NCBI GenBank assembly: GCA_040005235.1
Contig: JBDTZG010000001.1
Coordinates: 260,678 to 324,677 of the forward strand
DNA: 64,000 bases
Source of the DNA: Acidobacteriota bacterium
GTDB lineage: Bacteria; Acidobacteriota; Thermoanaerobaculia; Multivoradales; UBA5704
Direction of reading: 5' to 3'
Within the stretch, counting starts at the first letter, position 1. Each line of letters opens with the position of its first letter. The translations under genes were made by a program, and so were the position numbers. The notes below the pieces were generated by a model. That model did no database searches, was not told the DNA's origin, and saw nothing but the letters and a program-made list of their open reading frames with translations. Of the stretch, positions 39,877-64,000 are shown piece after piece.

Positions 39877-39892
39877 GTTTCGCCCGGGAGGT

Positions 39893-40068
39893 GACGGGGA
39901 GGGAGACGCCCCGACGTGGGTGGACCTGGAGGATCTGGGGTTGAGGACTGGGACGTCTCTACAAAAACGCTGTCGTATCGGGACGGGGAGGGAGATGCCC
40001 CGACGTTGGTGGAACCGGTTTGTCTGGAGTAATGGACTGGGGACGTCTCTACAAAACGCTGTCGTATC
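39893..40068. repeat. Imperfect tandem duplication (period ~89 bp) of a GTAGAGACG-type hairpin element
   Basis: Units 39893-39979 and 39982-40068, each gacggggagggaga(c/t)gccccgacg...gggacgtctctacaaaa(a)cgctgtcgtatc. Confidence 0.75.
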
Positions 40069-40173
40069 AAGGGCAGTTGGGTTCGTGGCCACGGGTGCCA
40101 AGAAGGCGAGGAACACCGCGAGCGGACCTTTCACGGTGATGACGGCCGCCTCGAACTCGATCAAAATAGCGCC

Positions 40174-40800
40174 ATGCCTCCCTTTCTCTGGAACGGCCCC
40201 GACGACGCTCCCGTCACCCTTGTCCTCGCCCACGGTGCCGGTGCGCCGATGGATTCGCCGTTCCTCGAAAAGTTCGCGCGCGGTCTGGCGGAGAGTGGAA
40301 TTCGGGTCGCGCGGTTCGAATTTCCCTACATGCACGCTCGGCGGGAAGGGGGCCGCGGAGGCGCTCCCGATCGGACCCCCGTGGCGCTCGACGCTTGGCG
40401 TGCGGCGTACGCTTTGGTTCAGGCCGGCGCAGCGGGCCGTGTAGCCATTGGCGGCAAATCGTTCGGTGGGCGGATGGCGAGCTTGATCGCCGACGAGGTG
40501 GAGGCCGCGGGGCTCGTCTGCCTCGGCTATCCGTTCCATCCGCCCGGGCGGCCGGAAAAGCCGCGCACGGCGCACCTCGAAGCGCTGCGCACGCCGACAC
40601 TGATCGTCCAGGGAACGCGCGATCCGTTCGGCACGCCGGACGACATCGGCGGGTATGTGCTCTCGCCCGCGATCCGGATCAAATGGCTCGAATCGGGTGA
40701 GCACTCGTGGAAGCCACTCGCGCGTTCGGGAAGGACCGAGGCGCTGAACATGGAACAGGGGATCGAGGCGACCGCGGGCTTTTTGGCCGCGCTGCCTTAA
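40174..40800 (+). CDS. Alpha/beta hydrolase (KANSL3/Tex30-like)
   Basis: LAHGAGA, IGGKSFGGR, LGYPFHPPG, VQGTRDPFG, GEHS. Confidence 0.88.
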   Translation: MPPFLWNGPDDAPVTLVLAHGAGAPMDSPFLEKFARGLAESGIRVARFEFPYMHARREGGRGGAPDRTPVALDAWRAAYALVQAGAAGRVAIGGKSFGGRMASLIADEVEAAGLVCLGYPFHPPGRPEKPRTAHLEALRTPTLIVQGTRDPFGTPDDIGGYVLSPAIRIKWLESGEHSWKPLARSGRTEALNMEQGIEATAGFLAALP

Positions 40801-43367: not shown

Positions 43368-43397
43368 CGGCGTTTAGACCAGAGTATGATAGCTCGC

Positions 43398-44300
43398 ATG
43401 AGCGCACGAGCCTACGCTTCCGGCACCGTCTCCTTCGGCCTCGTTTCGATCCCGATCAAGCTCTATTCGACCGGGGAAGCCTCGACCGGCATCCATTTGA
43501 ACATGCTGCACAAGAAATGCGGCACGCGGCTGAAGCAGCAATACATCTGTCCGACCGATAACGAAATCGTCGGAAAAGACGAGATGGTGAAGGGATTTGA
43601 GTACACCAAGGGGCAATACGTTCTGTTCAGCGAGGACGAGCTCAAAGCCCTGATGCCCGAGCCGACCAACGCGATCGACATCACGGAGTTCATCCCGCTG
43701 GATAAAGTGGATCCGATCTATTTCGAGAAAACCTATTACCTCGGTCCGGACAAGGGGGGCGACCGCCCTTACCTGCTGCTCTCCCAGGCGATGCGCGACA
43801 CCGGCCGTGCGGCGATCGCCCGCTACCGGGCGCGCGGGAAGGACTACCTGGTGCTACTCCGGCCATTCGAGCAGGGCGTCGTCATGCAGCAGCTGCGCTA
43901 CGCCGACGAGATCCGCTCGTTCTCCGAAGTGCCGATCGGCAGCGCCGAGGTGAAACCTCAGGAGCTGAACCTGGCGAAGATGCTGATCGACCAGATCGCG
44001 GGCGAATCGTTCGCGCCGGCCCAATACGAAGACGAAGTGAAGAAGAAGACCCGCGCGCTGATCGACAAGAAGGTCGAAGGTGAAGAGATCACCGCCGCGG
44101 TCGAAGAGGCGCCGAAGGCGCAAATCATCGATCTGATGGCAGCCTTGAAAGCGAGCCTCGCGAACGCGGGCGGGGCGGCCAAAGGCGACGCCAAAGCCGA
44201 CCGCAAGCCGGCCAAGCCGAGCCCGAGAAAGCCCGGCAAAGCGGACGAGGAGAAGCTGGCCGAAGTCACCCCGATACGCAAGAGGGCCGCGCGCGGGTAG
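43398..44300 (+). CDS. ku: NHEJ Ku protein
   Basis: SFGLVSIPIKLY, VKGFEY, IYFEKTYYLGP, IIDLMAALKASL, basic tail. Confidence 0.95.
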   Translation: MSARAYASGTVSFGLVSIPIKLYSTGEASTGIHLNMLHKKCGTRLKQQYICPTDNEIVGKDEMVKGFEYTKGQYVLFSEDELKALMPEPTNAIDITEFIPLDKVDPIYFEKTYYLGPDKGGDRPYLLLSQAMRDTGRAAIARYRARGKDYLVLLRPFEQGVVMQQLRYADEIRSFSEVPIGSAEVKPQELNLAKMLIDQIAGESFAPAQYEDEVKKKTRALIDKKVEGEEITAAVEEAPKAQIIDLMAALKASLANAGGAAKGDAKADRKPAKPSPRKPGKADEEKLAEVTPIRKRAARG

Positions 44301-44306
44301 GGCCTT

Positions 44307-50300: not shown

Positions 50301-52967
50301 GCGCTTGGCGATGCCGCGCCGGGTCGGCAGCAGGCCGACGATCGTCGAGAGGAGGCTCGGCAGGATCATCAGGGCGATCACCGCGAGGTCCCAGACCCCC
50401 GCGCCGAAGGCCCCCGTCGGCACCAGCAGCCAGCCCAGAAGCAGCAGCAGGAACGATGCGGGGGCGGCGAGCGAACGGCGCAGGTTGTCGAGCATCTTCC
50501 AGCGGGTGAGGGCGGAGAGCGGGTTCCTCTCGCGCCCGCCGGAGGCGGTCGGCGCCGTGGGCAGAAGCCAGGGGAGCAGTTGCCAGTCGCCGCGCACCCA
50601 CCGGGATTGGCGCGAGGCGTTGGCCAGCAGGTGCGACGGGAATTCGTCGAATAGGACGATGTCGCTCGCGAGGCCGGCGCGCGCGAATCCCCCTTCGAAC
50701 AGATCGTGCGACAGCAGGGCGTTTTCCGGCGCCCGGTCGAACAGCGCGGTCTCGAAGGCGTCGACCTCGTAGATCCCCTTGCCGACGTACGACCCCTCGC
50801 CGAACAGGTCCTGGTAGACATCGGAGATCGCGGCGACGTAGGGATCGACCCCGGTCGGACCGGAGAAACTCCGCTGATAGAGCGAGTCGTCGCCATAGGC
50901 CGGCAGCAGCGAGACGACCCGCGGCTGGAGGATGCCGTACCCGGAGATCACCCGCCGGGTGCGCGGATCGAACTGCGGCCGATGCAGCGGATGCCCGAGG
51001 GCGCCGACCATCGCGCCGACCGCGCCGGGCGGCAGCCGGGTGTCGGCGTCCAGGGTGATCACGTAACGGACCCCCGACGGCACCTCCGGCGGGCCGGCGT
51101 CCCCTTCGAAACTGGTGTCGGTGGCGCCGCGCAGCAGGCGGTTCAGCTCGTGCAGCTTCCCGCGCTTGCGCTCCCAGCCCATCCAGCGCCCCTCGCTCGG
51201 ATTCCACAGCCGGCGGCGATGGAGCAGGAAGAAACGCGGCCCGGTCTCATCGCCATCCTGGAGCGGTCCGTACCGTTCGTTCAACCGGGCGATCCCTTCG
51301 GCGGCGCAGCCGAGCAGGTCGGCGTCCGCCTCCGTCTGCTGGCTCGCCGCGTCGGCGAAATCGGCGAGCAGGGCGAAACCCACGGAGCCCTCGGGATTCG
51401 CCAGGTAGTGGACCTCCAGGCGTTCCACCTGCTCGTCGATCGCCGACGCTTCGAGCAGCGTGGGCACGACGACCAGGGTTCTCAACTCCGGAGGAGGACC
51501 GGCTTTGAGCGCGAGCTTGGGCAGCCGCCGGGCGGGGACCCAGGCCGCGACCAGGCGGTTGACGATCGCGAAGCTCAGATCCGAGACCGGAACCAGCGCT
51601 AGCAGGGCGAGCAGCGAGAGCCCCGGGCCGGAGACTCCGGCTTGGCGCAGGAAGTAGAGGGCGGGCGCGAGCAGCAGGGCGGTGACGAACGCCGCCCCGC
51701 CGAGATAGCCCGGAAGCCCCGCGGCGACCGCCGCCCGGGTGATCCGCTGCCGGAAAGTCGGGCGAAAGCCGATCTCGCGCTCGAACGCGCGGCGGCCGGG
51801 GCCGACCAGGACGGAACCCACGTGCCCCTTCGCCGACTCGCCGGCCGGTTCGGGAGTCGCGGTGGCCCCGGTGTCCACGGGGTTCCCAGTCCCTGTGTTT
51901 CCGACCCTCTCGATCGCCCGTTCGGCCACTTCGATCTCGGCCCTCCGGGCGCCGCGCGCCAACTCCTCGATCGCGTGGCGATACAGGTCCCGGCTCTCGA
52001 AATCCTGCAGCTCGTAGACGCCGGACGGATCGCGCCGGAGCACGTCGTCGACCAGGGAGGCTTCCTCGACGAAGCGTGCCCAATCGAAGGCCGCGATCCG
52101 TCGCATGCTGTAGATGACGTTGGCGACGCTCACCTGGGTCACGGCCTGGCGCTGGTGCTCCAGATGGATGACCTCGTCCTCGCCCGCCCCGCTCGCTTCG
52201 ATCAGCGCGCAAAGCCGGGCGAGCAGGGGAGTCGCTTCCCGGTCCTGCTCGCGCAGGCGCTGCAGGAGCTGGACGGCGAACGCCAACTCGGGGCTTTCGG
52301 GGGAAAGATCGAGCCGGCTTAGGGCCTCGTCCTGCCGGGCTCCGAGGCCGAGCACGCCATCGGCGATCGCGTCGGCCCGGGCACGCGCAGCGAGCCGCGC
52401 CACCACCCCGTCGGCCAAGCGGCGGAGATTTTCGATCAGCGCGATGCGCAGATGGATTCCGATCGCCCAAAGCTCGCCGATGCGCAGCGGGACGCCGCGC
52501 TGGTAGCCCCGGACGAAGCGCAGCAGAAGATCCGGATCGAAGCGGCTGTCGGTGTGTTCGACGAAACTCAACGAGAGCGCATAGACGCGCGGCAGCCCCT
52601 CCCACGGGCCCGCGTCGAGTTTCGGCAGCTCGCGGTAGAAACGCGGCGAGAGATCCTGCCGGATCTGCCGCTCCTGCTCTTCGACCAGGTAAAAGTTGTC
52701 GACCAACCAGGCCGCCCCGAGGGTGATCGCCCGCTGCTCGCCAACCGCTTTCTCAAGCGCGATACGCGCCGCTCGCAGGGCGGTGCGGTTGTCATGCAGC
52801 CGTGGCAGCAGCGGCCGGCCGCGGCGGGAGCGCGCGGCGACCTGCGCGGCGCCCAACTCCTCGGCGCGCTGCTCCAGCGGATCGGCGCCCAAGATCTCGC
52901 CACGAATCGGCTCAAGGCGCACAGGGCGAGGAAGGCTGGCGGAGGGATCGGCGGTGGATGATTTCAT
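44307..52967 (-). CDS. ndvB: Cyclic beta-1,2-glucan synthase (Cgs/NdvB/ChvB)
   Basis: About 2890 aa; WLVDNFY, GWERKRGKL, TLDADT, LLSHDLFEG, RWVRGDWQL, LPPDNFQE, SWSGSMFEYLMP, YQSSGAFGFRDQLQD, RENGGQYTH, GWTWYTGS. Confidence 0.93.
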   Translation of the reverse strand: MKSSTADPSASLPRPVRLEPIRGEILGADPLEQRAEELGAAQVAARSRRGRPLLPRLHDNRTALRAARIALEKAVGEQRAITLGAAWLVDNFYLVEEQERQIRQDLSPRFYRELPKLDAGPWEGLPRVYALSLSFVEHTDSRFDPDLLLRFVRGYQRGVPLRIGELWAIGIHLRIALIENLRRLADGVVARLAARARADAIADGVLGLGARQDEALSRLDLSPESPELAFAVQLLQRLREQDREATPLLARLCALIEASGAGEDEVIHLEHQRQAVTQVSVANVIYSMRRIAAFDWARFVEEASLVDDVLRRDPSGVYELQDFESRDLYRHAIEELARGARRAEIEVAERAIERVGNTGTGNPVDTGATATPEPAGESAKGHVGSVLVGPGRRAFEREIGFRPTFRQRITRAAVAAGLPGYLGGAAFVTALLLAPALYFLRQAGVSGPGLSLLALLALVPVSDLSFAIVNRLVAAWVPARRLPKLALKAGPPPELRTLVVVPTLLEASAIDEQVERLEVHYLANPEGSVGFALLADFADAASQQTEADADLLGCAAEGIARLNERYGPLQDGDETGPRFFLLHRRRLWNPSEGRWMGWERKRGKLHELNRLLRGATDTSFEGDAGPPEVPSGVRYVITLDADTRLPPGAVGAMVGALGHPLHRPQFDPRTRRVISGYGILQPRVVSLLPAYGDDSLYQRSFSGPTGVDPYVAAISDVYQDLFGEGSYVGKGIYEVDAFETALFDRAPENALLSHDLFEGGFARAGLASDIVLFDEFPSHLLANASRQSRWVRGDWQLLPWLLPTAPTASGGRERNPLSALTRWKMLDNLRRSLAAPASFLLLLLGWLLVPTGAFGAGVWDLAVIALMILPSLLSTIVGLLPTRRGIAKRTHVGALLGDLQTVLTQSEVSIALLPARAVLRLDSIFRTLYRLIVRRRMLEWVTAAQAGAGATLDRSGFYLRLIGAPIAAVLTPALVALLRPSAFPATLPFASLWLLAPLFARILSLPTVFASRESLEPAQQLYLRRIGRQCFGFFERFTNATENFLPPDNFQEDPQPKVAPRTSPTNIGLALLSNVTAYDLGWAGRIETLERLEATFSTLDRLERYNGHLFNWYDTRTLATLEPRYVSTVDSGNLCGHLIALSTACLELAGPTAADPRSPIRREAVNRGLADVLALVRDSAARAPATGKGGAVGARDLEAALDGLDRAIRSMPAARSVRNAGTELADITAVRRSAQGLTDIASALAAANPGAAAAEAQSWAEALERTAASYARDLQAAEDADLTARLAERFAALAERAERFAREMDFAFLLDPVRKLLVIGFRADERQADPSCYDLLASEARLTSLLAIAKGDVAHEHWFRLGRPLTPIGRGSALLSWSGSMFEYLMPSLVLLEPERSLLGTTVRLVVGEQIRYAAEHGVPWGISESAYNERDLELNYQYGPFGVPRLGLRRAPADELVIAPYATGLATLFEPEAAIANFRRFDQLGARGRYGFYEALDFTSRRVPEGESFAVIRTYMAHHQGMTLLALADVLADGALRRRFHGHPLGRAVELLLQERTPRDVVVARPAPEEKPALRVRAGVHSGLRLFDTPHLSTPRIHLLANRDYAVLVTSSGAGWSRFRGLAVTRFREDATRDDSGTFFYLRDLSSGKVWSAGYQPTAVEPDSYRVQLSAEKVEIRRTDGAVSCQMEVIVSTEENAELRRLTLTNSGDEPRSIEITSYAEISLATQGADEAHPAFSKLFVATEALRWPHALLATRRASGSGAGPAPWAAHVLAVEGETVGPPEHETDRARFLGRGFGLRRPLAIVEGRPLSGTVGSVLDPVFSLRRTVIVPPGAKVRALFVTGAAASREEAVRLVEKFSEASAYGRASGLAWTLAQVEQRHFGIQPDEAHLYLRLAADLVFANPDLRASSAILARNRLGVSALWGHGISGDLPIVLLRISQIEDREIARQLVLAHQFWRTKGLATDLVILNEQPSAYVQELQAELQSIVRTAQTQGGATFAHSGAPTGTVFVLRADQMPEEHRDLLRTVARVVLVAHQGSLPEQLQRLTSARIAAPPALPRSPLTAKAPALLSAAADRDLAQWNGLGGFARGGREYVIVLNAGQRTPLPWLNVIANPRFGCQISESGAGYTWAENARENRLSPWSNDPVCDPPGEAIYVRDEETGELWSPTALPIRDETGTYVCRHGQGWSRFEHAGHGIGLELLVFVAPKEPVRIARLTLKNLSGRRRSLSVAAYVEWVLGNSRAASAPFVVTERDPATGALLAANSWNEDFRSRVSFAWLSGGKVAATADRREFLGRHGTLATPAGMIRRTPWSGRMGAGLDPCAALLTRLDLTPGGGTEVVFLLGQGTDRAEALDLIARYSATDASALFEQVEAGWDVVLGALTVRTPDPAFDLLVDRWLLYQALSSRIWGRTAFYQSSGAFGFRDQLQDSMALAVADRNVARDQLLRAASRQFVEGDVQHWWHVPSGRGVRTLCSDDLLWLPFAAAHFVATTGERAVLDEEVPFLDQPPIAAGQHEDYRLPEISAQRAPLYEHCARAIDRALLPGPHGLPLIGSCDWNDGFSRVGLEGKGESIWLGWFLLSVIDAFAPFAEERGEPERAAAWRARAATLRAALEDAGWDGAWYRRAYYDDGATIGSAADAECRIDSIAQSWAVISHAADPSRAARAMNAVDAHLVERGNGLIRLFAPPFDPSSRGAGSHDPGYIQDYPPGVRENGGQYTHAAIWTVIAFAELGDGDRAGELFALLNPIHHASTRAGVYRYKVEPYVVAADVYAEPPHVGRGGWTWYTGSASWMYRAAVEWILGCRIRGAALHLDPCIPRTWRDFSIELRFGTALYRIEVLNPSSVMKGVASRELDGAPVETEEIPLVDDGREHAVRVVLG

Positions 52968-53073
52968 CGTAGCGGGTCTGAGAACGGCGGCCCGCGGCAC
53001 GGCTCGTGCGCCTTCGGGCGCTACTGCGCACCCGGCTCGATTCGACCCACCGCCCCTGAGCATATCCCGAGCC

Positions 53074-53089
53074 TGCAAAGGCGTTGCCC
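53074..53089 (-). promoter_or_regulatory. Candidate sigma54 promoter upstream of the glucan synthase
   Basis: Minus strand GGGCAACGCCTTTGCA (GG-N10-GC); inverted repeat ggcaa-tct-ttgcc at 53142-53154 further upstream. Confidence 0.45.
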
Positions 53090-53321: not shown

Positions 53322-55858
53322 CTACGGATCGCGCAGGTTGTAACCGTAGATCGCAAACTTCTGCGCACCTCCCGCCACGTTCTCACCGGTAACCTTGAGC
53401 GTCAGCTGCTGGCCGGCGGCAAAGAAACCGGCCGGGACGAAAATCGCCTCGACGTTGTTGATCGCATCGACGAACGGAGGCTTGGCATCCGGCAGGAAGC
53501 GCTGCGAATACCCGTCGTCCAACCCGCCGCGATTCTCATGGAAGTTGTTGCCGGCGAAATAGGCCCCCGATCCGACCTCCTCGGCGAGCAGACCGAGGTT
53601 GTTGACGAGAGCCGCCTGCGAGCTGCCGAACGCCTGGGTCGGCGGATCGGACCAGACGAGCACGATCAAGGTTTCGCGCGCCGGATCGTCCACCGTACGG
53701 GTCCAGGTGCGTTGCTGGCCGGTTGAAACGGCGAGGCCCTGATTGTCTTTCCGGTAGAAGCGAGCTGCTCCATCGGTCAGGCGGTTCAGATCGACCCGCC
53801 CCCATCCGCTGTTCGGACTCGGCCGGTGGTCGTTGGTAAGAAAGTTGCCGAGATCGGCCGCCGTGGCGATCAGCGCCGCCTTGATCAGGCTCGGGGACGG
53901 ATCTCCATCACGGTCCATGAACCACTTGCGGGCGTGCGCCGAGACCCCGGCGACCACCGGCGCCGCAAAGCTGGTCCCGGTGCCGTAGGAGTGGTACCCC
54001 ACGGGCGGTGTTGGGTAGACCAGTGTGCATGCTACCGTGCTCTCGTACGCGGCAAAATCGAACGGCACGGTGGAAAAGACGCGCACCCCGGGAGCGACCA
54101 GATCCGGCTTGATCCGCGTCGTATGAGCCATCGCGGGGCCGGGGAGGGGTCCGTACGAACGTCCGCGCCCGCTGAACGAGCCGATCCGCGCGATGTGCAG
54201 CGCGTCGAGGTCGGGGGGGGGGTGTTGTTTGGATTCTCCTGGCAGGCGAGGGGAGGCCCCTGCGAGACCGGCCGATAGTTGGCGGAGGCGCCCACCGAGA
54301 TGACGTTCTTCGCCGTCGCAGGTGTCGACACCGTGTCGCGAAAGATCGTCGAAGTCGCGTAGTCCCAGGCCTGGTTGCCCGCCGAAAAGACGATCGTCAT
54401 CGGTTGGGCTCCCGCGATGAAGCTGTTCGCATCGCGAACCCGCGCATCGAAGAACTGGGCGCTATCGTCGTACGAGGCGACCGCCCGCTCAACACCGCTG
54501 ACCGTTTGACGAAGATTCCAACTGTTGGTCGCAATCGCGGCCCCTACAGCCAGGTCGTCGGCGTAGGCCTGCTCGTGGTCTTCGAGGTCGTCGATATGCA
54601 AAAACTTCGTTGCCGCGACCCTGCACGTCGGACAGATCCCGGTGCCATAGGCGAACCCTTGCGGGTCGAGCTCGTTTGTTTTTGCTCCGTTGCCTGCCAC
54701 GATCCCCGCGACCATGGTGCCATGGCCAATTAGGTCGCCCGTATCGCTCAAGGAGGGGGGCTGCTTTTTGAGCGAGACGAAACGCGTTGAGATCTCAAGG
54801 TCGGGATGGGGGACATCCTCCTCCTCTCCCTTGTTGTCGAATCCCGAATCATGAATGGCAACCACCTGCGGATGGGTCGGCGACTCCAGCCCTCGAGCGA
54901 CCAGCCAGGCGCGGTAGCCGGGGGTCGTGACGCTCGCGCCGTCATGGTTGCCGGCGACGATCTGGCCCTGGCGCTCGTCGCTCCACTCGCCACTACCTCG
55001 TGCGACCACGCTCAGCAGGTCGGGCTCGTCGGCGACGATCTGGCGCAGCGCGGCCGGGGTGGTCTGGATCTCGGCCAGCGGATAGCCGAGCTCGGAGGTG
55101 CGCGCGTTGTTCCACAGGCCCGCACTCGGCCAGCGTTCGGCCTTGGCGCCCAGATCGGTCCCGGGCAAGAACTGGAGAACGTAACCGAGGGGCCGGGTTC
55201 CCTCGAACAGATCCGCCGCCGCACGATCCGAGGCGAGCCAGGGCTCGGCCCAGGCGATGCGGCTGGCTACACCACAGGCGGCAAGCGCATCGAGCCCGCC
55301 GCCGCGCAGCAGCAGGGTGCGCTGCTGGAAGTACGCGATCCTCGTGAAGCCGCAGCTTTCGAGCGCTTCCTGCCATTCGTCCCGCAAGGGATAGGCGAAC
55401 TGAGCGAGCAGTAATCCGGGGATCGGTTTCGGTTCGACCACCGCCCCACCAGCCAGAGCGTGCGCCCCCGGGACGGAGGGATCGAATCCGAAGTGGGGCA
55501 ACTCGATCCAGCGATCCGGTCCGACCCCAACGGTCAAGCCGTTCCCGACCGCGGCGAGACGGGCTTTCTCGGCCGCCTTGCCCGGCAGGTAGGTCGAGAC
55601 GAAGCTGTCGTACTCGATCGCTCCAGGACCGAGCAAGGCGGTCACGCCCTTCGGGATCGGCGCGTAGACTTCGCCGGGTGGCAGTTCCGCGACCGCCTCG
55701 GCGTCGCGGCCGTGATCGATCAGGCGCTTCTGAATCTGAAGGTAGGTGAGGCCCTCGTAGGCGGAAGCCACGTCAGCGGCGTAGAGGCTACTCGACAGCG
55801 TGAGCAATGAACAGGAAAAGGCCACAAAAGCGCACAGTAGGTTCGGCTTGCGACGCAT
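53322..55858 (-). pseudogene. Secreted S8 (subtilase) serine protease, frameshifted at a C10 homopolymer
   Basis: 5' ORF: signal peptide, VAIHDSG (Asp), GHGTMVAG (His), FSAGN. 3' frame: FSGRG, IKPDLVAPG, GTSFAAP (Ser), GWGRVDL. The frame changes at G10, 54213-54222. Confidence 0.85.
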
Positions 55859-55934: not shown

Positions 55935-56483
55935 TCAGCGGATAGAGGAAACATCGAAATCGGCGGAGTACTCGACCTGATTGAAGTAATCGTCGATCGC
56001 GCGAATTGTTCTTTCGACTTCCTGTGAGCAGATCGGAAGGTCAGGGAGGTCACCGGCGCCCAAGGAGGCTCGAAATGCGTTCCGCCTCGGGCCTTGCCCG
56101 TACCAGGTAATTTCGATGAAGCCGCTGAGCACTCCGCCCGTATCGATCTGGCAGTTTTTATGGATCCCGACCCGATTTGTCGTCAGCGCGCTACGCAGTC
56201 GACTCAGCAGTATAGGTGAGCCTACGCCTCGGCGCAGGAATGAGTTGAAGGGTCGATCCCCAGTCCGGAGCCAGATATTGTTGATCGTGGCGCCTCCGAC
56301 CGACACGAATGAATCACCGTCGGAGAACTCGAGCAGAGGGGGGGAAGGTATCGTATTGAATCCGTACCGGGTCGAATGCATCCGAACCAGCGGTCGAAGG
56401 TCCACACCGTCGAAAATGTCGGCGGCGGGCGCGGCGGTGGCCACGCTGAAGCCGAGGAGCAAGGGAATGAGGGCGTTTCGCAA
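55935..56483 (-). CDS. Hypothetical secreted protein (182 aa)
   Basis: GGAGG RBS before TTG 56483; signal peptide MRNALIPLLLGFSVATAAPA; co-oriented upstream of the S8 protease. Confidence 0.65.
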   Translation of the reverse strand: MRNALIPLLLGFSVATAAPAADIFDGVDLRPLVRMHSTRYGFNTIPSPPLLEFSDGDSFVSVGGATINNIWLRTGDRPFNSFLRRGVGSPILLSRLRSALTTNRVGIHKNCQIDTGGVLSGFIEITWYGQGPRRNAFRASLGAGDLPDLPICSQEVERTIRAIDDYFNQVEYSADFDVSSIR

Positions 56484-56710
56484 GTTAATCCTCCCGTTCA
56501 GCGGACCGCCGCGGCAGGCCCTGAAAGTTTTTCTGGCTTCCCGGCCGGGACCGGGGGCTGGCGCGGATCCGCGATCCCGGGGCATCGGTGCCATTGCTGG
56601 AAACATAACAGAAATCTGCATTACAGGATCATTGCGCACGCTGGAACAAGCCGGAACACAGCCGTGGTTATTTCAGGGCGAAATTCGCCGCCGACAGGAG
56701 TACGGCTATT

Positions 56711-57157
56711 TCAGGAGACGGGTTCTGACGCGGCCGCTCCGCCGCCCGGCGGCGGCCCCATTTTCCGCTCGAACCGGACGGCCAGGCGCATGACTTCCCT
56801 GCGCTGCTCTTCCACCCATTCGGCCAGCCGCAGGTCGGCCGGATCGCGCCGGGCTCCGGTCTTCGCCCGCGCCTCTCCCCGCCACCGCAGCCTGCGGGCC
56901 GCTTCGCCCAAAACCTCTTGGTGGTGGCGGAATTCGCCCCCCACCGCCCGGATCTCCGACCGCTCGACCGATTCGCCGAGCAAGCTCGGATCGGCCGGCC
57001 CCGCTTCCCTCACCAGAGCCTCGGTGACGAACTCGAGAACTGCGCGGATGTGCGGAATCCGCTGAAAACGCAGCAGCACGGTCTCCCGCAGCAGGCCGAT
57101 CCTCCGCCTCGTCGCCTCCTCCAGGCGTTCCAGGTGCTTTTCGACCTTCTCGTTCAT
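56711..57157 (-). CDS. Hypothetical helical protein (148 aa)
   Basis: ATG start 25 bp downstream of the 57183 ORF; charged helical composition. Confidence 0.55.
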   Translation of the reverse strand: MNEKVEKHLERLEEATRRRIGLLRETVLLRFQRIPHIRAVLEFVTEALVREAGPADPSLLGESVERSEIRAVGGEFRHHQEVLGEAARRLRWRGEARAKTGARRDPADLRLAEWVEEQRREVMRLAVRFERKMGPPPGGGAAASEPVS

Positions 57158-57182: not shown

Positions 57183-58037
57183 TCACGAGACCGTCTCCTC
57201 GGCCCGCCGCTCCTGGTCGCGCAGCGCGGTAATGAGCGCGTAGCCGCGGTGATCCGCCGCGACTTTCACGATCACCCGCTTTCTCTCGATCTCCCAACGG
57301 GCCGGGCAGTTGAGCAGCCGCCCCAGGTCGATCACGCGGCGACCGGATTCGATCCGCGTCGCGGCGGAAGGTTCCTCGAAGATGAGCACGAACCAGTTGC
57401 CGTCGGGGCTCAATGCCCAGTCGTCCATGGCTGCCCGGGGTGCGGAGAAGCCGAGGGGTGGAATCAGAAACAAAGGCGGCATGCCGTCGATGACGGGGAG
57501 TCCTCCAGAAGTTGGATGGGCCGGCCGGGGGGCGCCTTGGCGCCTCGCGCGGCGGCGCGTGCGGATCAATTGGAGGAAAGGGCTCGGGTCAGCTGCGCCC
57601 TTTCGGAGGATCGCGGCCCAGACGCGCAAGGTGATCAGGCCGCCCTCGGGCAGGTTCTTCGCCTCTTCGCGCGCCAGGTTTTCGATCCGTCCGGCAAGCG
57701 CGGGCAGCCGCTCGGGGAGATTCAGATACAGAAGACAGCGGCCCACCTCCAGCGTCGCCTCTGCGGCGGCGAGCGGCTCTCCGGCGACCTCATAAGCCCA
57801 GGCGGCCCGTTCGAAATGGGCGGCTGCGTTTAGATGGTCACCGTCTCGGGTCGCTTGCTCGCCGCGGTGCATCAATAGCCGGCCGAAGCGGCGCAGGCTG
57901 GCGAGGTCGGCCTCGGCGCGCGGCTCCGGGGAATTCGCCGGGGAAAAAGCGGGACGCGCGTAGATCCTTACCGTCCGCGCGCCCCGTGGATGAGTTGGGC
58001 GACTTCTGCTCGAATTGCGGGTGGGGGTGTCGCCCAT
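57183..58037 (-). CDS. Hypothetical protein with TPR-like segment (start uncertain)
   Basis: LNAAAHFERAAWAYEVAGEPLAAAEATLEVGRCLLYL helix pair; divergent from the XRE-TPR gene. Confidence 0.55.
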   Translation of the reverse strand: MGDTPTRNSSRSRPTHPRGARTVRIYARPAFSPANSPEPRAEADLASLRRFGRLLMHRGEQATRDGDHLNAAAHFERAAWAYEVAGEPLAAAEATLEVGRCLLYLNLPERLPALAGRIENLAREEAKNLPEGGLITLRVWAAILRKGAADPSPFLQLIRTRRRARRQGAPRPAHPTSGGLPVIDGMPPLFLIPPLGFSAPRAAMDDWALSPDGNWFVLIFEEPSAATRIESGRRVIDLGRLLNCPARWEIERKRVIVKVAADHRGYALITALRDQERRAEETVS

Positions 58038-58255
58038 GGGAAGGACGATAGGCAGAAACGTCACCGCAGTATTCGCAGCTCTTGCAAATTGCATTCGGAT
58101 TGCGCTGCTTGACACAGTCATCTCAGGGAAAGACGCGAGGGCGGGGGATGGCCGATCGGGCGTGCCTCATTACGTTTCGACGGGCCGAAGGACACGCAAT
58201 TCCGTGTCACGCAAAAGGCTTGGTGCGCACTCAACAAAATCAGAGAGATCCCAAC

Positions 58256-59698
58256 ATGCGCAGCCGCCCGATCGCCTCGGTCTTGCCGACCGCATACAAA
58301 GCCCTGTGCGCCGTCCTTGGCTGGGACCCGGGGGAGTTTGCCCGGGCACTGGGCCTTTCGCGCAGCACGCTCTGGCGGATCGAAGCGGATCTCTCCGAGC
58401 TGACCGCAGAGCGCCAGGCCGCCGCGAACGCGATCCTGGGCGTCACCGACGAGGAAATCGAGGCCGCCGTGCATCTGGTGACGCTGGTGGCCGAACGGCA
58501 GGCCCGGGAGGCCGCGGGATCTTCATCGCCCGGCGCCACCCGCCGCCGCGCCCGCATCGCAAAGGAGCTCAATGCGGCGGTCCGCGATGCCCGCGCGTTC
58601 CTCGAAGCGCAGCTCCGGGCGATCGAGGTGGAGGAGGCGAAAGAGGACGCCGCCCGGCTGTGGCACGACCTGGCCGCGGACTCAGCCGGCGAACGGAAAC
58701 TCGCGGTCGAGACCTGCGACGAGTTTCTCACCCCGGCATTCATCGCCCGACTGTGCGAGGAGAGCGTCAACGCCGCCCCGCGGCGTGCAAAGGATGCGGT
58801 CGAGCTGGCCGACTTGGCCCTCCAGGTCGCGGAGCGGGCACCGGGCACGGAGCGTCGTCGTGCCAACCGCTTGCGCCAGGCCTGGGCGTTCGTCGCCAAC
58901 GGCCACCGGGTGAGCAACGCCTTCGGCAAGGCGGACGCGGCGTTCGCCCGAAGCCGCGAGATCCGGCCGGAGGGGCCGGCCGAAGAACCGGAGTTTTTCG
59001 ACCCCGCCCGGCCGCTCGATCTCGAAGCCTCGCTGCGGCGCAATCAGGGGCGCCACGGGGAGGCGTTGGTGTTGCTCGAACAGGCGCTGGAGGTCTGTTG
59101 GCCCGCATCCCGTTCGAGGCTCCTGCTGATTCAGGCGGTCACATGGGAGCAGGAGGGGGAGCCGGAAAAGGCGCTCGCAGCGCTGGAAGAAGCCCGGCCC
59201 GCGATCGAGCGGGGCGAGGGGGGGCCGCGGTCCCGCCGGGTTTTGTGGTTCAACCAGGTCAAGAACCTGATCCAGCTGGGGCGGCCCGGCGAGGCGGCAG
59301 AGTTGCTGCCGGAGTTGAGGCTTCTGGCGATCGACGACGATCTGGACACGTTGCGGGTGCGCTGGCTGGCGGCGGTGGTCGAGGCCGATCTGGGACGACG
59401 GAGCGAAGCGTTGGTCGAGCTCCGTGCGGTGCGGCGGGAGTTTGCGGCGCGGAGCTTGCCGGTGGACGCCGCGCTGGCAGGCCTGTATGAAGCGCAGGTT
59501 CTGCTTGCCGAGGCGCGGCACGAAGAGATTCGGGCGCTGGTGCAGGAGATGCGTCCGATCTTCGATGCGCTGGGCTTGGAACGCGAATCGCTCGCGGCGG
59601 TGCGGCTGTTCCTCGAAGCCGTGAAACGCGACGCGGCGACCGCCGCCATGGCGCGCGACGCGGCCCGCGCGCTCTGCCGGCTGCCGCGCCGCGCATGA
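58256..59698 (+). CDS. XRE-HTH + TPR protein (paralog 1)
   Basis: N-terminal GWDPGEFARALGLSRSTLWRIE HTH; TPR array (RLCEES, AWAFVAN, ADAAFARSR, LDLEASLRR, VKNLIQLGR, LRVRWL). Confidence 0.85.
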   Translation: MRSRPIASVLPTAYKALCAVLGWDPGEFARALGLSRSTLWRIEADLSELTAERQAAANAILGVTDEEIEAAVHLVTLVAERQAREAAGSSSPGATRRRARIAKELNAAVRDARAFLEAQLRAIEVEEAKEDAARLWHDLAADSAGERKLAVETCDEFLTPAFIARLCEESVNAAPRRAKDAVELADLALQVAERAPGTERRRANRLRQAWAFVANGHRVSNAFGKADAAFARSREIRPEGPAEEPEFFDPARPLDLEASLRRNQGRHGEALVLLEQALEVCWPASRSRLLLIQAVTWEQEGEPEKALAALEEARPAIERGEGGPRSRRVLWFNQVKNLIQLGRPGEAAELLPELRLLAIDDDLDTLRVRWLAAVVEADLGRRSEALVELRAVRREFAARSLPVDAALAGLYEAQVLLAEARHEEIRALVQEMRPIFDALGLERESLAAVRLFLEAVKRDAATAAMARDAARALCRLPRRA

Positions 59699-59705
59699 AA
59701 CTAAA

Positions 59706-60047
59706 TCAATGGTGGGGTGCGCCGTTGGGGTCCGCTTCGAGGCCGACGTCTTGCGAACCAGGATTCGCGAACGGTCGTCCGTTAGGATCCATCTCGAGGC
59801 CGACGTTGCCGATGACGAGGTGCGGCGCAGTTCGACCGTCCGGATCGGCTTCGAGGCCGATGCTCGGCCGGCCGCTCGGATCGGCCTCCAGGCCGATCTC
59901 CGCCCAGAGCCTCGACAGCAGGCTCCAGGGAGAAGTGAACAAGGCCCAATCCTTCGGCGCGGCCCCGGCGGGTCCGGCGAGGAGCGCCAGGCCGAGCAGG
60001 AAACCAGCGGCGGTGCGGTAAGCGTGGCGGTGCGGGGGGAGGGTCAT
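59706..60047 (-). CDS. Small secreted precursor with four (I/V)GLE(A/M)DPxG repeats (113 aa)
   Basis: AAGGAG RBS; signal peptide ...AAGFLLGLALLAGPAGA; WSLLSRLW helix; IGLEADPSG, IGLEADPDG, VGLEMDPNG, VGLEADPNG. Confidence 0.8.
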   Translation of the reverse strand: MTLPPHRHAYRTAAGFLLGLALLAGPAGAAPKDWALFTSPWSLLSRLWAEIGLEADPSGRPSIGLEADPDGRTAPHLVIGNVGLEMDPNGRPFANPGSQDVGLEADPNGAPHH

Positions 60048-60197
60048 GTGGGTCTCCTTGAGTTTCGAGGGCGGTCGGCCGGCGGGACTGCCGGCCGGAA
60101 CCCCTCGAAAGTGAAAGTGTCCGTTGAACCGATTGTTGCGCCGATTGCATGGGACGTGCAGCGGCGGCGTGCGTCAGGCCTGGGAAGGAGGTTCTCC

Positions 60198-61673
60198 GTG
60201 AGAAGCAAGAACGATTCACCGACGGTGATTCGAACCGCAAGGGCGGTCGAGGGGTGGACGCAGAGCGACCTGGCCGACCGGCTGCGCACCGCGCCGAGCA
60301 CCATCTCGCGCGCCGAAAGGGAGGGCGCGGAGCCGCCGCCGCCGAGCCTGATGGAGCGCATCTCCGCCGCCACGGAAGGGCGCCTTCCCTTCGTCGAGCA
60401 GTTCGTCGCCTCCTATCGGATTCTCCAGAGCTCGCGCCGCGGGCCGGTCGAAAGCGCCGCCGACCGGGCGGAAGACCTGGCCGCCGAGCTGGCGAGCCGG
60501 TTTGCCGCCCACCTCGCCCCGGCCCTCACCGCTCTCTCGGCGGCCGGCGACGGAGCGGAGGAGAGCGAGACGGCCCCCATCGCGGAACAGCGGGCCGAGG
60601 CGGAGGAGCTGTTCGAGCGGCTCGTTTTGCGCTCGGAAGAAGAGCGCCGGTTCATCGTCCGGAAGGGGCGGCGGTATCGCAGTGCCGCGCTCTGCGAACG
60701 ACTCTGCGACGAGAGCGTCGACGCGGCCGCGAAGAGCGCAGAGGACTCCCTGGCGTGGGCGCGGCTCGCGCTGCGCGTCGCCGAGCGGCTACCCGGACCC
60801 GGAAGGGAACGGTCGAAGGGATTGGGCTATGCCTGGAGCTTCCTCGGCAACGCTCGGCGGGTGGCGAACGAATTCCCGGCGGCCGACGCGGCATTCGCGC
60901 GCTCCCGGACGTTCTACGCCGTGGCCGGCGACGCAGCTCCCGGCTGGTTCGACGAGGCGCGGGCGCTCGACCTCGAAGCGTCCCTCCGCCGCAACTGGGG
61001 AGATTTCGGCCAAGCGCTCGCCCTGCTCGACCAAGCGCTCGCCGTCTGTCAGCCCGCCAACCGGACGAGAATCCTATTGAACCAAGCATCAACCCTGGAG
61101 CAGGACGGCCGGCCTGACCGGGCGTTGCTCGCGCTGGCGGAGGCCCGGCCCGCGATCGAACGAGGCGAGGGGGGCTTACGCTTCCGTTGCGTACTACATT
61201 TCAACACGGTCAAGAACCTGATCCAGCTGGGCCGGGCGACCGAAGCGGAGCCTTGGCTACCCGAGCTGCGGCGGATCACCGCGGAGCTGAACAACGACCT
61301 CGACAAATTGCGCCTCCGTTGGCTGGAGGGGGCGGTCCAAGCGGATCTCGGCCATCGCCCGGAAGCCCTCGCCCAAATGGCCCGGATCCGCGCGGAGTTC
61401 GCGGCCCTTTCCCTCCCGGCGGACGCGGCACTGGTGGGCCTTCACGAGGCGGAGATCCTGCTGCTCGACGACCGGACCGGAAAAGTCCGCGCCCTCGTCC
61501 GCGCGATGGGCCCGATCTTCGAATCCCTCGGCTTACAGCGCGAAGCGCTCGCCGCCTACCGCCTGTTCGTCGCGGCGGTCGAGCGCGAGGCCGCCACCGT
61601 CTCGATGGCCCGCGAGCTGGCGAAAGCGATCGAACGGGCCGGCGCGCGGCTTGAGGGGTCGGGGGCGGGTTGA
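60198..61673 (+). CDS. XRE-HTH + TPR protein (paralog 2)
   Basis: AGGAGG RBS before GTG 60198; IRTARAVEGWTQSDLADRLRTAPSTISRAE HTH; TPR array collinear with paralog 1. Confidence 0.88.
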   Translation: MRSKNDSPTVIRTARAVEGWTQSDLADRLRTAPSTISRAEREGAEPPPPSLMERISAATEGRLPFVEQFVASYRILQSSRRGPVESAADRAEDLAAELASRFAAHLAPALTALSAAGDGAEESETAPIAEQRAEAEELFERLVLRSEEERRFIVRKGRRYRSAALCERLCDESVDAAAKSAEDSLAWARLALRVAERLPGPGRERSKGLGYAWSFLGNARRVANEFPAADAAFARSRTFYAVAGDAAPGWFDEARALDLEASLRRNWGDFGQALALLDQALAVCQPANRTRILLNQASTLEQDGRPDRALLALAEARPAIERGEGGLRFRCVLHFNTVKNLIQLGRATEAEPWLPELRRITAELNNDLDKLRLRWLEGAVQADLGHRPEALAQMARIRAEFAALSLPADAALVGLHEAEILLLDDRTGKVRALVRAMGPIFESLGLQREALAAYRLFVAAVEREAATVSMARELAKAIERAGARLEGSGAG

Positions 61674-61792
61674 GCCCGGCCGGCAAGAAGTTGGCGAGCA
61701 GCCGCGCGGAAGGGCTGGCCGTGGAGCTTTTCCCCAGGGTCATTCCGGGCGAGAACGCTGCACGCTCCAGCGGGGCGGCCGTGTGAAAAATC

Positions 61793-63091
61793 TCACGGGT
61801 TCGGCGATTGCCGCGGGGCGTTGTCTACCCGCAGTTGAGGGTGCTTCAGGAAGATCCGCTGGTCTTCGTCGATGATCATGAGAGCGCGCTCGGGCTCGAT
61901 CCGGAAGCGCTTTGGCGAGAGGTCGATGTTCACCCCTAACTCCTGCACTGTGTAGTGGAGTTCGGCGAGCGATTCGCCGTTCTCTCCCAATCCCGCGAGC
62001 ACAATGTGCCAAGGGAACGCAAAAGAGCTTCCCTTGGGCGTCCGGTAGTCGAGTAGCTCCAATCGCGTAAGGACTCTACCTCCCGGGCGGACCAGCTCGA
62101 TCTGGCGGACCTGGCTTGCCTGGCCGTCGATTTCGACGCGGAAGAAGTAGGCCTCGCCACCGAGGTAGCCCCCGGGAAGCTCAAGCACCAGACCTTCTTT
62201 CGTCTCACGCCCCATCGCGGCTCCCACTCGAGCCTGCCAGCGCGTTGGATCCAGGATGGAATTTCTGGTCGGGATACAAGGCGAGCAGTCGTCGTCTTCC
62301 CAGCCGAGAAAACCCACCGGTAAAAACAACGGATTCGGGAAGGGAAAGGGTGCTGCTCCTGTCGATCGGCGCGAAAGGTGGAGGCGTTTATCTTCGGGAT
62401 AGAAAAGCTGGTACGTGGCTCCATCGAATGCCGCTTCGACCGCGGGAGCAAGCCCAAACCGGGGATCGATGCCTGCACTTGCAAAGACCCGATTCCCTTC
62501 TGCTGCATAGGCGAACGAACCTTCGCTGCTGCGATCCGGCCGCCAAGCCCAAACGGCCGCGCGGAAACTAACCGAGCGGAGGTTCTGGTAGAAAGCGACC
62601 AGGTCGCGTAGAGCCCGTTCGGTTCGCAGCGCGAGGCCCCGTGATCCGCCCACCGGAACATAGGCCGACCTTGGGGCAACCGGCGGGATCGAGGGCCGGC
62701 TCCAAGCGGCAAGCTGGTCTTGATCGACTGGCTGGAGCATTTGATTCAAAATCTCGGGGGAGGTATCGCACGGTATGCCGGCTCCGCATTCACGACATCC
62801 GCCGCCTCCGGTCGAGGCACCACAAATGGAAGTTGAGAGGGGATTGCCACAAGGACATCGAGCCGGGATCATCCCTAACAAGAAGCAACTCTTGGTTCCA
62901 CACGCCCCTCCGGCATTCCACCCCTCCCCGGTGTTAGCCACCAAGGTTACTGGAACTAAAGAGGTCGGACTTTTAATGCATGCCGGCTCTAGGGGGGCGC
63001 AACTCAGAACATCAGTGTGACAGGTGAACTGGGCAGATCCAGCGACCGAGAAGGATGCAGAGAAGGCCAGGGCACAGAGTAGGGTTCGCAT
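61793..63091 (-). CDS. Secreted protein with Cys-rich N-terminal domain and LolA-like C-terminal domain
   Basis: Signal peptide; 11 Cys in about residues 24-108; C-terminal AAFDG...YQ, FPWHI, VNIDLSPKRF resembling lipoprotein-sorting folds. Confidence 0.65.
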   Translation of the reverse strand: MRTLLCALAFSASFSVAGSAQFTCHTDVLSCAPLEPACIKSPTSLVPVTLVANTGEGWNAGGACGTKSCFLLGMIPARCPCGNPLSTSICGASTGGGGCRECGAGIPCDTSPEILNQMLQPVDQDQLAAWSRPSIPPVAPRSAYVPVGGSRGLALRTERALRDLVAFYQNLRSVSFRAAVWAWRPDRSSEGSFAYAAEGNRVFASAGIDPRFGLAPAVEAAFDGATYQLFYPEDKRLHLSRRSTGAAPFPFPNPLFLPVGFLGWEDDDCSPCIPTRNSILDPTRWQARVGAAMGRETKEGLVLELPGGYLGGEAYFFRVEIDGQASQVRQIELVRPGGRVLTRLELLDYRTPKGSSFAFPWHIVLAGLGENGESLAELHYTVQELGVNIDLSPKRFRIEPERALMIIDEDQRIFLKHPQLRVDNAPRQSPNP

Positions 63092-63188
63092 CTCTATCCT
63101 CGTTTCTCAGATACCACGCACAGGCTGCGCCTCTCTCTCTCTCTTGTCAACCCCCCGGAGGTGGCCGGGTCGCTCCCCCGCCCAAGCG

Positions 63189-63215
63189 GCCGAGCTGGAG
63201 CTCGGCGCTCCCAGG
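63189..63215. repeat. REP upstream of RAYT
   Basis: gccgagctggagctcggcgctcccagg. Confidence 0.85.
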
Positions 63216-63263
63216 AGAGACGCCCGCGGGGGAGAAATCTCCATTCCGGGGTCGATTCCTCGC

Positions 63264-63851
63264 CTGGGATGGTCCTCGCGAGGATATTTGCCCCATCGCG
63301 ACGAAGTGGGGCTGATTCAGTCGCTCACTTTTCGCTTGGCCGATTCCTTGCCCCAGGAAATGCTTCGTCAAATGGATCAGGAGCTGGCGGCTCAGCCGAG
63401 CTCCATACGAGACGTGGAGCGGCGCAAACGAATGGAGAGCTGGCTCGACGCAGGCCTGGGGTGCTGCGCGCTCGCGCATCCCAAAATGGCCGAGACGGTA
63501 GAAAACGCTCTCCTCCATTTCGACGGCGGGCGCTATCGGCTGCTGGCCTGGTGCATCATGCCGAATCACGTGCATTCGTTGATTGAACCCATCGCGCCCT
63601 TGCCGGAGATCGTGAAGTCTTGGAAATCGTTCACCGGTCGCTGGGCTCTTCGGCATGCTGTCGCGCTTGGGCTCCGCATTCCGGGAAAAGGTTTTTGGAT
63701 GCGGGAGGCTTGGGACCGCTTTATCCGAGATGACACGCATCTACAGCGGACAATCGACTACATCCATCGGAACCCCGTGAAGGCCGGACTTTGCGTAAGC
63801 CCCAACGCCTGGCGTTGGTCGAGCGCGCATTTCGATCCAGCCGCCGATTGA
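63264..63851 (+). mobile_element. REP-associated tyrosine transposase (RAYT, Y1 HUH family); start uncertain
   Basis: GWSSRGYLPH, TFRLADSLP, AWCIMPNHVH (HUH), VKSWKSFT, FW...WDRFIRD, YIHRNPVKAGL, WRWSS; flanked by REPs. Confidence 0.9.
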
Positions 63852-63855
63852 GATC

Positions 63856-63960
63856 CCTGGGGGCGCCGAGCTCCAGCTCGGCACCGAGGCGGCGAGGTCG
63901 CCAAAACAGCCGAGCTGGAGCTCGGCGCTCCCAGGAACTACCCTTCCCAGGAACTACCCT
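63856..63960. repeat. Inverted REP pair downstream of RAYT plus a short tandem duplication
   Basis: cctgggggcgccgagctccagctcggc (63856-63882), gccgagctggagctcggcgctcccagg (63909-63935); cccaggaactaccct twice (63930-63960). Confidence 0.85.
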
Positions 63961-64000
63961 GCCGGCGGCGGACCAGGTCGAGTTCCAGGTCCTCGAGGCC

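Follow-up and report, generated by a model that had tools for sequence, protein, structure and literature searches.

A highly multiplied cassette of HTH-TPR regulators and a putatively secreted repeat propeptide in Acidobacteriota, and its likeness to RRNPP peptide signalling

Can a bacterium with an outer membrane run a private peptide-sensing circuit laid out like the RRNPP systems of Gram-positive bacteria? The question is raised by a locus in a 64,000-nucleotide stretch of Acidobacteriota DNA (hereafter the window; contig JBDTZG010000001.1, positions 260,678 to 324,677; contig C118 of a 6.2-Mb, 140-contig genome), in which two paralogous regulators, R1 and R2, each combining an XRE-type helix-turn-helix (HTH) with a tetratricopeptide repeat (TPR) array, flank a gene for a small, putatively exported repeat propeptide. 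Peptide signalling via cytoplasmic TPR receptors is textbook Gram-positive biology. The RRNPP(A) group is treated as a Firmicutes or Gram-positive family in the accessible parts of PMC10075063, PMC9765709 and PMC12700828, the last of which presents an outgroup for RRNPPA receptors as still being sought. Among the papers listed in the literature searches, none describes an acidobacterial or Gram-negative counterpart (the supplementary tables of RRNPP_detector lay outside this coverage), and the publications listed on Thermoanaerobaculia peptides or quorum sensing and on Acidobacteriota disulfide-repeat precursors contain no description of the cassette. We find that the window locus belongs to a cassette that is specific to its lineage and present there in many copies. 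The reading that it is an RRNPP-like private peptide-sensing or signalling circuit, the likeliest of those considered though our judgement on it is evenly balanced, draws on observed gene structure, paralogy, fold class, conserved linkage, selection on the repeat units, cassette-specific unit residues and co-divergence of the units with the receptors.

Three genes form the core of the locus:

58256-59698, plus strand: R1, an XRE-HTH and TPR regulator of 480 amino acids with an ATG start
59706-60047, minus strand: propeptide gene, 113 amino acids, with AAGGAG ahead of its ATG
60198-61673, plus strand: R2, an XRE-HTH and TPR regulator of 491 amino acids with a GTG start behind GGAAGGAGG

The first-pass annotation of this DNA had described two collinear XRE-TPR paralogs of about 480 and 490 amino acids with shared sequence blocks and, between them, a 113-amino-acid signal-peptide gene with four C-terminal motifs. 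Its coordinates are exact to the base, and the open reading frames (ORFs) and gaps are as claimed: R1 and the propeptide gene converge across a 7-bp spacer (59699-59705), and the propeptide gene and R2 diverge from a spacer of 150 bp (60048-60197). R1 and R2 are 55% identical across 353 amino acids (E 2e-108), and all six of the shared blocks that had been quoted were found. Pfam places HTH_31/HTH_3 at the N-terminus of each protein, together with a weak TPR_12; the R1 matches lie below the curated cut-offs and the HTH_3 match of R2 lies above them. PHROGs and PADLOC returned generic HTH matches alone for R2 and no match for R1, the propeptide, or U1 and U2, the two genes encoded upstream of R1. 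Homologs of R1 number 191 at E<=1e-5 and are labelled as HTH/TPR proteins from Thermoanaerobaculia metagenome-assembled genomes (MAGs).

The three genes had been correctly recognized; overlooked were that the locus is one of about 30 cassettes in the genome, that it belongs to a cysteine-free minority type, and that it includes U1 and U2. Searches of the source genome gave 48 matches with R2 and 26 with the propeptide, 8 of the latter below E 1e-3. A hidden Markov model (HMM) built from 18 peptide paralogs and run on all stop-to-stop ORFs of the genome with a cut-off of E<0.01 found 30 ORFs, 12 of them new beyond the 18 used in building it, and 28 of the 30 lie within 400 bp of an ORF matching the R-family HMM. 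This linkage is kept across four gene orders: the order seen in the window, in which a long R gene converges with the peptide gene and a second long R gene diverges from it (also on C18, C137, C79 and C8); the same order with a second R gene that is half-length or, in a third variant, HTH-only; and a fourth in which the peptide gene precedes an R gene on the same strand. The R1 site, convergent with the peptide gene, holds a full-length regulator in all cassette types, and the R2 site of other cassettes holds a full-length, half-length or HTH-only paralog. In the window's clade the cassette comprises five genes, with U2 and U1 pointing away from R1, R1 and the peptide gene pointing towards each other, and R2 diverging from the peptide gene.

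Beyond the source genome, peptide-family matches occur in 11 of 150 other genomes of the class; with 31 candidates scored per genome, the three other members of the window's family have no fewer than 27, 22 and 9 peptide copies, and one genome of a neighbouring family carries 3. An R gene is present in 18 of the 25 peptide loci of these other genomes, and the seven loci without one are weak, C-terminal-only matches from other families. Among the best 15 candidates per genome from 300 further genomes sampled across the phylum, no peptide-family match reached E<=1e-5. In a scan of species-representative genomes that used the 18 closest receptors as queries, and is therefore biased to close relatives, a peptide-family ORF was found at 63 of 78 receptor loci; 77 of the 78 carry Acidobacteriota-type labels (Thermoanaerobaculia, Thermoanaerobaculaceae, Thermoanaerobaculum, 'Holophagales' or Acidobacteriota) and one is labelled Deltaproteobacteria. 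Cysteine-free peptides and the gene order seen in the window are shared by all of the nine closest receptor loci (L076-L084). The first-pass annotation had stated in advance that a lack of enrichment of peptide genes beside XRE-TPR homologs would speak against its proposal; they are strongly enriched there (28/30, 18/25 and 63/78), and this ground for refuting it falls away. Because the layout recurs across the genome and related genomes, and because the repeat units differ synonymously, as described below, the arrangement exceeds chance. Separately, six loci from genomes of other families (L051-L055 and L063, in G079, G039, G043, G131 and G071) encode small peptides with a hydrophobic N-terminus and G-x-G-[IL]-D-P-[ND]-G repeats, often ending in DPNG or DPEG, with no W..LW helix and no R gene within the 3-kb locus; at L057 (G020), a long array of approximately nine-residue xxIDP[ND]Gxx repeats stands beside a partial R gene.

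The propeptide begins with a basic n-region and a hydrophobic core that ends in AGA/AP, which we judged by eye to be a putative Sec-type signal peptide (amino acids 1-29). It continues with a pro-helix at amino acids 34-50 (DWALFTSPWSLLSRLWAE), in which W..LS.LW is conserved, and then holds four [IV]GLE[AM]DPxG units:

unit 1, amino acids 51-61, nucleotides 59865-59897, minus strand: IGLEADPSGRP
unit 2, amino acids 63-73, nucleotides 59829-59861, minus strand: IGLEADPDGRT
unit 3, amino acids 82-92, nucleotides 59772-59804, minus strand: VGLEMDPNGRP
unit 4, amino acids 101-111, nucleotides 59715-59747, minus strand: VGLEADPNGAP

The gene has a G+C content at third codon positions (GC3) of 0.78, and the propeptide has no family in Pfam, NCBIfam, PHROGs or PADLOC. 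Among 1.84 billion cluster representatives, its profile matched 1958 at E<=1e-3, of which 468 passed the stricter cut-off of E<=1e-10; nearly all of the matching representatives are 80-160 amino acids long. Among the best 150, 147 are short; 143 of these 147 have a signal-like N-terminus by a simple heuristic, 116 have the h..h..hW helix, 89 carry three units and 41 carry four, and in 93 the last unit stops 4 residues short of the C-terminus. The unit consensus is [DEK]-x-G-C-x-[ILV]-D-P-[NDS]-G-R-C, in which D, P and both G are near-invariant and the residue following the first Cys is the most variable position. Most representatives (135/147) have the Cys-loop form, C-x7-C; the remaining 12, including the window's peptide, are cysteine-free or mixed, with L/A...P/T standing in place of C...C in the cysteine-free units, and the mixed precursor P0144 shows the transition. 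In the ESM Atlas, the neighbours of the propeptide are unnamed Acidobacteriota 'hypothetical protein' clusters with a score of 0.89 (bar 0.9), and the structure rows all have template-modelling scores (TM) < 0.35. RTX-type calcium repeats and RHS/YD repeats were considered as kin of the DPxG units and set aside, as their register, compared by eye, does not fit. Three longer public proteins of 670-780 amino acids (P0130, P0149 and P0253) each have 6-7 stretches that match the unit region, and P0130 contains dozens of G-x-[IL]DPNG[RK] repeats within a larger protein. Even if the peptide is merely a regulated effector, it represents a large, unnamed and strongly selected family of secreted repeat peptides.

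The units of the window's peptide are not young DNA repeats, because their conserved codons have diverged synonymously: in each pair of units, 3-5 of 7 conserved codons differ without changing the amino acid, and there is one amino-acid difference (A/M). Purifying selection, as judged from these codons, appears to act on every unit. Across 143 precursors and 468 units, the two residues ahead of D-P have an identity of 0.54 within precursors and 0.21 between them, a within-precursor value that none of 1000 permutations reached, and the x of DPxG is nearly free (0.31 within versus 0.22 between). Comparison of the window's peptide with its ortholog at L076, which lies beside an R1 of 82% identity, gave 1 nonsynonymous and 6 synonymous codon changes across the signal core and pro-helix (amino acids 17-50), against 15 nonsynonymous and 15 synonymous changes and the loss of one unit in the unit region (amino acids 63-113). 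Together, these identities and the L076 comparison indicate that the units evolve fast between cassettes, yet stay alike within one.

This divergence follows that of the receptors, which is the co-variation that the first-pass annotation had proposed to look for. On a FastTree phylogeny that takes in the long R proteins to which 96 peptides are linked, peptide type (with or without Cys) changes 9 times, compared with 24-38 times in 200 label shuffles. The identity of the variable residues falls from 0.58 at receptor p-distances <0.2 to 0.12 at >0.65, and motif identity is negatively correlated with receptor distance (Spearman -0.24; none of 500 Mantel permutations was as low). Receptor and peptide have been duplicated and inherited as a unit, diverging together. 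Within the window's clade (the window's peptide and loci L077-L082), unit 2 is kept as G[IL]EADPxGR[TS] across paralogous cassettes, and units 1, 3 and 4 change together (LVV, AVV, LEM, LEA). The unit sequences suggest two unit classes in a cassette with two full-length receptors, and these classes could address R1 and R2 separately.

The cassette extends upstream of R1, where tblastx against related loci shows that the DNA is also conserved. Two genes and two divergent spacers complete the layout:

57183-58037, minus strand: U1, 284 amino acids if the ATG at 58037 is the start (the ORF is open to 58121)
56711-57157, minus strand: U2, 148 amino acids, GC3 0.83, last gene of the arm divergent from R1
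58038-58255: divergent spacer between U1 and R1, a putative promoter region; 58191-58208 within it is the inverted repeat GACACG-N6-CGTGTC, a candidate operator
60048-60197: divergent spacer between the propeptide gene and R2, a putative promoter region, with a GC-rich imperfect hairpin or palindrome at 60051-60122 and conserved blocks beyond it

The start codon of U1 was deduced from conservation with the paralog on C18. Its segment 57510-57917 is a free-standing copy of the regulator's C-terminal helices, to which a C-terminal extension is added: hhalign aligned the U1 profile with the R profile end to end on R1 368-478 (probability 81%, E 1.2e-5, 110 columns), and TPR families weakly match 8 of 10 members of the U1 family. 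Of the 15 matches to U1 in the genome, 12 stand upstream of a long R gene in divergent orientation, and another is beside a cassette. U2 has no family in Pfam or NCBIfam; its three clear paralogs (C107, C85 and C18) are each directly downstream of a cassette-side U1 paralog.

When the upstream regions of related cassettes are aligned, 10 of 11 keep the block GACACG-N6-CGTGTC, which is a candidate operator on this ground. The window has a single instance, where 0.28 would be expected by chance and 26 of 100 shuffles give at least one match, a count that is not significant, and the block is not enriched near R genes across the genome (5 of 194 hits with <=2 mismatches against about 2.4 expected); convincing instances near R genes are confined to C118 and C18. 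An operator shared by both promoters was also considered and rejected, as no 7- or 8-mer recurs in both sets of intergenic sequences, with at least 6 cassettes counted in each set. The hairpin at 60051-60122 has 33-nt arms that are 73% complementary and is situated directly upstream of the ribosome-binding site of the peptide gene; it lacks a T-run and so does not qualify as an intrinsic terminator. Twelve related cassettes retain it, those of C137 and L084 with another sequence but the same pairing. Its single-sequence folds lie 1-4 standard deviations below mononucleotide shuffles; RNAalifold gives it a weak consensus. AT-rich palindromes occur in other cassette types and are absent from the window's cassette.

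Around the cassette, the following genes were recorded:

55935-56639, minus strand: ORF of 234 amino acids with a hydrophobic N-terminal stretch, no Pfam family, GC3 0.66
53322-55858, minus strand: S8 subtilase gene, split over two overlapping frames
61793-63091: cysteine-rich ORF of 432 amino acids with a hydrophobic N-terminus and one distant paralog on C10
63024-63851: REP-associated tyrosine transposase gene

All three genome copies of the 234-amino-acid ORF family are within approximately 2.5 kb of cassettes (the window, C8:54687-55235 and C59:67035-67343), and the ORF could represent 'cargo' under regulation, carried on the U1-U2 arm. In the subtilase gene, Pfam positions 5-195 are encoded in 54032-55858 and positions 199-288 in 53322-54131; the split comes from either a frameshift or a mistake in assembly near 54032-54131. 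The peptidase was considered as a cassette-linked processing enzyme and rejected, since the genome has 11 PF00082 matches and none but the split pair of the window lies near a cassette. The region 61700-64000 has a G+C content of 0.60-0.62 compared with about 0.70 elsewhere. Positions 38758-53078 are an ordinary chromosomal context comprising an NYN-domain protein, LigD and Ku (a non-homologous end-joining pair) and a 2923-amino-acid GH94/glucoamylase protein, which we take to be a cyclic beta-1,2-glucan synthase-like enzyme.

The AlphaFold2 model of R1, based on 82 homologs, has a mean predicted local distance difference test score (pLDDT) of 93.4; it is all-helical and comprises about 8 helical hairpins besides an HTH and two long linker helices, and no membrane segment was seen in it. 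In a VIA search with this model, which does not depend on Foldseek, APPBP2 and LGN ranked highest (Z 20.6) and NprR-NprX was third (Z 19.8, rmsd 4.3, 291 residues). RRNPP receptors make up 5 of the top 15 matches, NprR-NprX being followed by RapI (18.6), the phi105 Rap (18.1), RapH (17.9) and the pLS20 Rap (17.1); further down are MalT domain III (16.6), PlcR (15.0) and AimR (14.9).

In its layout, the cassette resembles an RRNPP(A) system such as NprR-NprX, PlcR-PapR, AimR-AimP or Rap-Phr: the receptor is cytoplasmic and joins a TPR superhelix to an XRE-type HTH at its N-terminus, next to its gene is a small one for a putatively Sec-exported propeptide with a C-terminal candidate active part, and many diverged paralogous pairs occur per genome. 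The repetition of units in one propeptide also has its counterpart, as propeptides with several tandem pheromone units are documented for Rap-Phr (PMC11343458, in the part accessible). Unlike RRNPP pheromones, which the accessible part of PMC12998947 describes as short, linear and unmodified, the cassette's units share an invariant D-P-x-G turn and are mostly disulfide-closed. Other differences are that the peptide gene converges with or diverges from the receptor genes, and there are often two receptor paralogs plus a tail-only protein; that the cassette occurs outside Bacillota and their mobile elements, judging from Thermoanaerobaculia and Acidobacteriota MAG labels, in a phylum that has an outer membrane; and that the window's receptors have no detectable sequence homology to RRNPP(A) receptors. 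The proposal of an RRNPP-analogous system in an Acidobacteriota-like organism therefore stands in part: the HTH-TPR and propeptide layout, the linkage, the co-variation and the assignment to Acidobacteriota hold, and sequence kinship to RRNPP receptors does not. The resemblance is one of layout; membership in RRNPP is not supported.

Three further systems offer partial parallels. SinR/SinI of Bacillus subtilis (and SlrR/SlrA) pairs an XRE-HTH regulator with an adjacent small gene that copies the C-terminal interaction region, and U1 likewise lies beside a regulator to whose C-terminal region it is, by the profile alignment, probably homologous; there is, however, no sequence relation between the two systems, and U1 copies TPR-like helices whereas SinI copies the helical hook of SinR. 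MalT-type/SUPR regulators resemble the R proteins in having a TPR sensor domain that controls a DNA-binding domain, in keeping with the match to MalT domain III, and precomputed Pfam annotation gives TPR_MalT (PF17874) for several R homologs. MalT differs in that it senses a sugar and has no linked peptide gene, and the R proteins have no NTPase domain and carry an HTH that is XRE-type and N-terminal. In Anabaena, the RGSGR peptides of PatS and HetN act on HetR, and PatS has no Sec signal, TPR receptor or multi-copy cassettes. The parallel is that, in a diderm, a ribosomally made peptide signals to a DNA-binding protein of the cytoplasm, with signalling being only proposed for the cassette; the proteins are unrelated to those of the cassette.

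If the cassette is a signalling circuit, we envisage that the 113-amino-acid precursor would be exported by Sec, with its signal peptide cut after AGA and its conserved pro-helix serving export or processing. Four [IV]GLE[AM]DPxG(R)(P/T) units would then be released, in most sister cassettes as oxidised C-x7-C disulfide loops; they would accumulate outside the cell and re-enter it, possibly via the genome's single Opp/Dpp-type ABC importer. Inside, the units would bind the TPR superhelix of R1 and/or R2, and binding would alter HTH occupancy of operators in both divergent promoters, such that the cassette would regulate itself and possibly its neighbours. U1, as a tail mimic, may modulate the oligomerisation of the regulators in the way that SinI does for SinR. 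The importer genes, an SBP_bac_5 gene that is the sole one of its Opp/Dpp type in the genome and two permease genes, are at C8:64502-68900 (locus L075), 4.7 kb from a cassette and separated from it by an unknown gene and a histidine kinase gene; because this concerns 1 of about 30 cassettes, we treat the proximity as coincidence rather than as linkage. A broader version, in which a soil lineage of Thermoanaerobaculia possesses dozens of private pheromone channels, each with 3-4 turn-forming, usually disulfide-closed units, its own HTH-TPR receptors and U1 as an antagonist, seems to us possible, though rather more doubtful than not. A complex prediction for R1 120-480 with peptide 30-113, given alignments as input and made without controls (score 0.01, mark 0.32), carries no weight in either direction, and a search of public sequencing runs, which returned 2 DNA datasets from one study, one of them perhaps the source sample, and no RNA dataset, has no bearing on expression.

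Several observations weigh against a signalling function. The fold of the R1 model indicates only a TPR superhelix, because its matches to NprR and Rap are tied with those to APPBP2, LGN and APC subunits. The structural comparison with PlcR, NprR and AimR that the first-pass annotation had called for is accordingly divided: NprR is among the best VIA matches, but tied with generic TPR proteins, and the best 50 Foldseek matches in PDB consist of LGN, APC subunits and designed TPRs and include none of the RRNPP receptors. At the sequence level, no RRNPP-specific Pfam or NCBIfam family matched at E<=0.1, where generic HTH and TPR families alone were found, and the 60 best PDB sequences for the receptor-family profile include no RRNPP receptor; Pfam RNPP_C had no match in the genome at E<=0.01, in a search where the control genomes for this model behaved oddly. 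Adjacency and co-divergence would be given equally by co-inheritance of a regulator with the gene it regulates, and because co-inheritance alone yields the same pattern, co-divergence is no proof of contact between receptor and peptide. The invariance of D-P-x-G across all paralogs could reflect a structural or enzymatic role instead of signalling. Units of approximately ten residues would have to cross the outer membrane twice, and the cassette contains no exporter, protease or importer gene, the nearby S8 peptidase gene being split in two frames and not linked to other cassettes.

The main rival is that R1 and R2 regulate the peptide gene as a secreted effector and sense something else through their TPRs, the peptide not being their ligand; it could act outside the cell or in the periplasm, for instance as an antimicrobial, in kin discrimination or as a multi-headed inhibitor of proteases. 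A divergent promoter with conserved non-coding blocks between the peptide gene and R2 suits such a plain regulator-target pairing, for which adjacency and co-divergence are equally expected, and an invariant D-P-x-G turn that is closed by C-x7-C in the great majority of representatives resembles a structural scaffold; in Bowman-Birk/SFTI-type inhibitors, the reactive sites are disulfide loops of nine residues. We nevertheless consider this explanation fairly unlikely: genes for immunity, export or a target are not among the conserved parts of the cassette, it is hard to explain why there should be about 30 effectors under separate regulation, every one with a TPR sensor or two of its own, the cysteine-free types, including that of the window, share the same organisation, and the unit residues are cassette-specific and track the receptor.

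Two other explanations appear improbable to us. The propeptide might be a precursor of a peptide made by the ribosome and modified after translation (RiPP), its units being the cores of a natural product whose enzymes are encoded elsewhere and the HTH-TPR proteins being pathway regulators or leader-binding partners. A conserved, leader-like pro-helix ahead of 3-4 variable repeated cores fits this idea, and Thermoanaerobaculia are reported to be rich in RiPP clusters in the accessible part of PMC13083261. However, Pfam and NCBIfam reveal no modifying enzyme in the window cassette, the recurrent neighbours are genes of the R and U families only (other flanks having been scanned with the R and peptide HMMs alone), the cysteine-free units show no obvious pattern of modifiable residues beyond D/E/N, and a Sec signal peptide is an uncommon feature in a RiPP precursor, bufferins being an exception (PMC11626156, in its accessible part). 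With as little probability, R1, R2 and U1 might form a repressor/anti-repressor switch of the SinR/SinI or CI/Cro kind that gives bistable expression of neighbouring genes without sensing a peptide, the propeptide being merely one output or acting before export, for example as a secretion-stress sensor. U1 as a stand-alone copy of the regulator tail, beside cassettes in 13 of 15 instances, would suit such a switch, as would the truncation of the R2 site to HTH-only or half-length in many cassettes and the two divergent promoters with conserved repeats; but it would leave unexplained why every cassette has an exported peptide with cassette-specific, selected units, and why peptide-R pairs on one strand exist with no R2 in the locus (U1 was not searched for there).

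The copy in the window adds the cysteine-free type, codon-level selection on the units, the size and taxonomic range of the family, the test against the receptor tree and the five-gene layout. On the broader reading, the cassette receptors could also provide the outgroup that is still lacking for tracing how RRNPPA receptors arose, a matter raised as an open question in the accessible part of PMC12700828. If the cassettes do signal, peptide quorum sensing of RRNPP design would have arisen or survived in a diderm, soil-dominating and hardly cultured phylum; the two-way crossing of an outer membrane by a peptide would become a concrete question, and about 2000 natural receptor-peptide pairs would be at hand for studying how specificity evolves.

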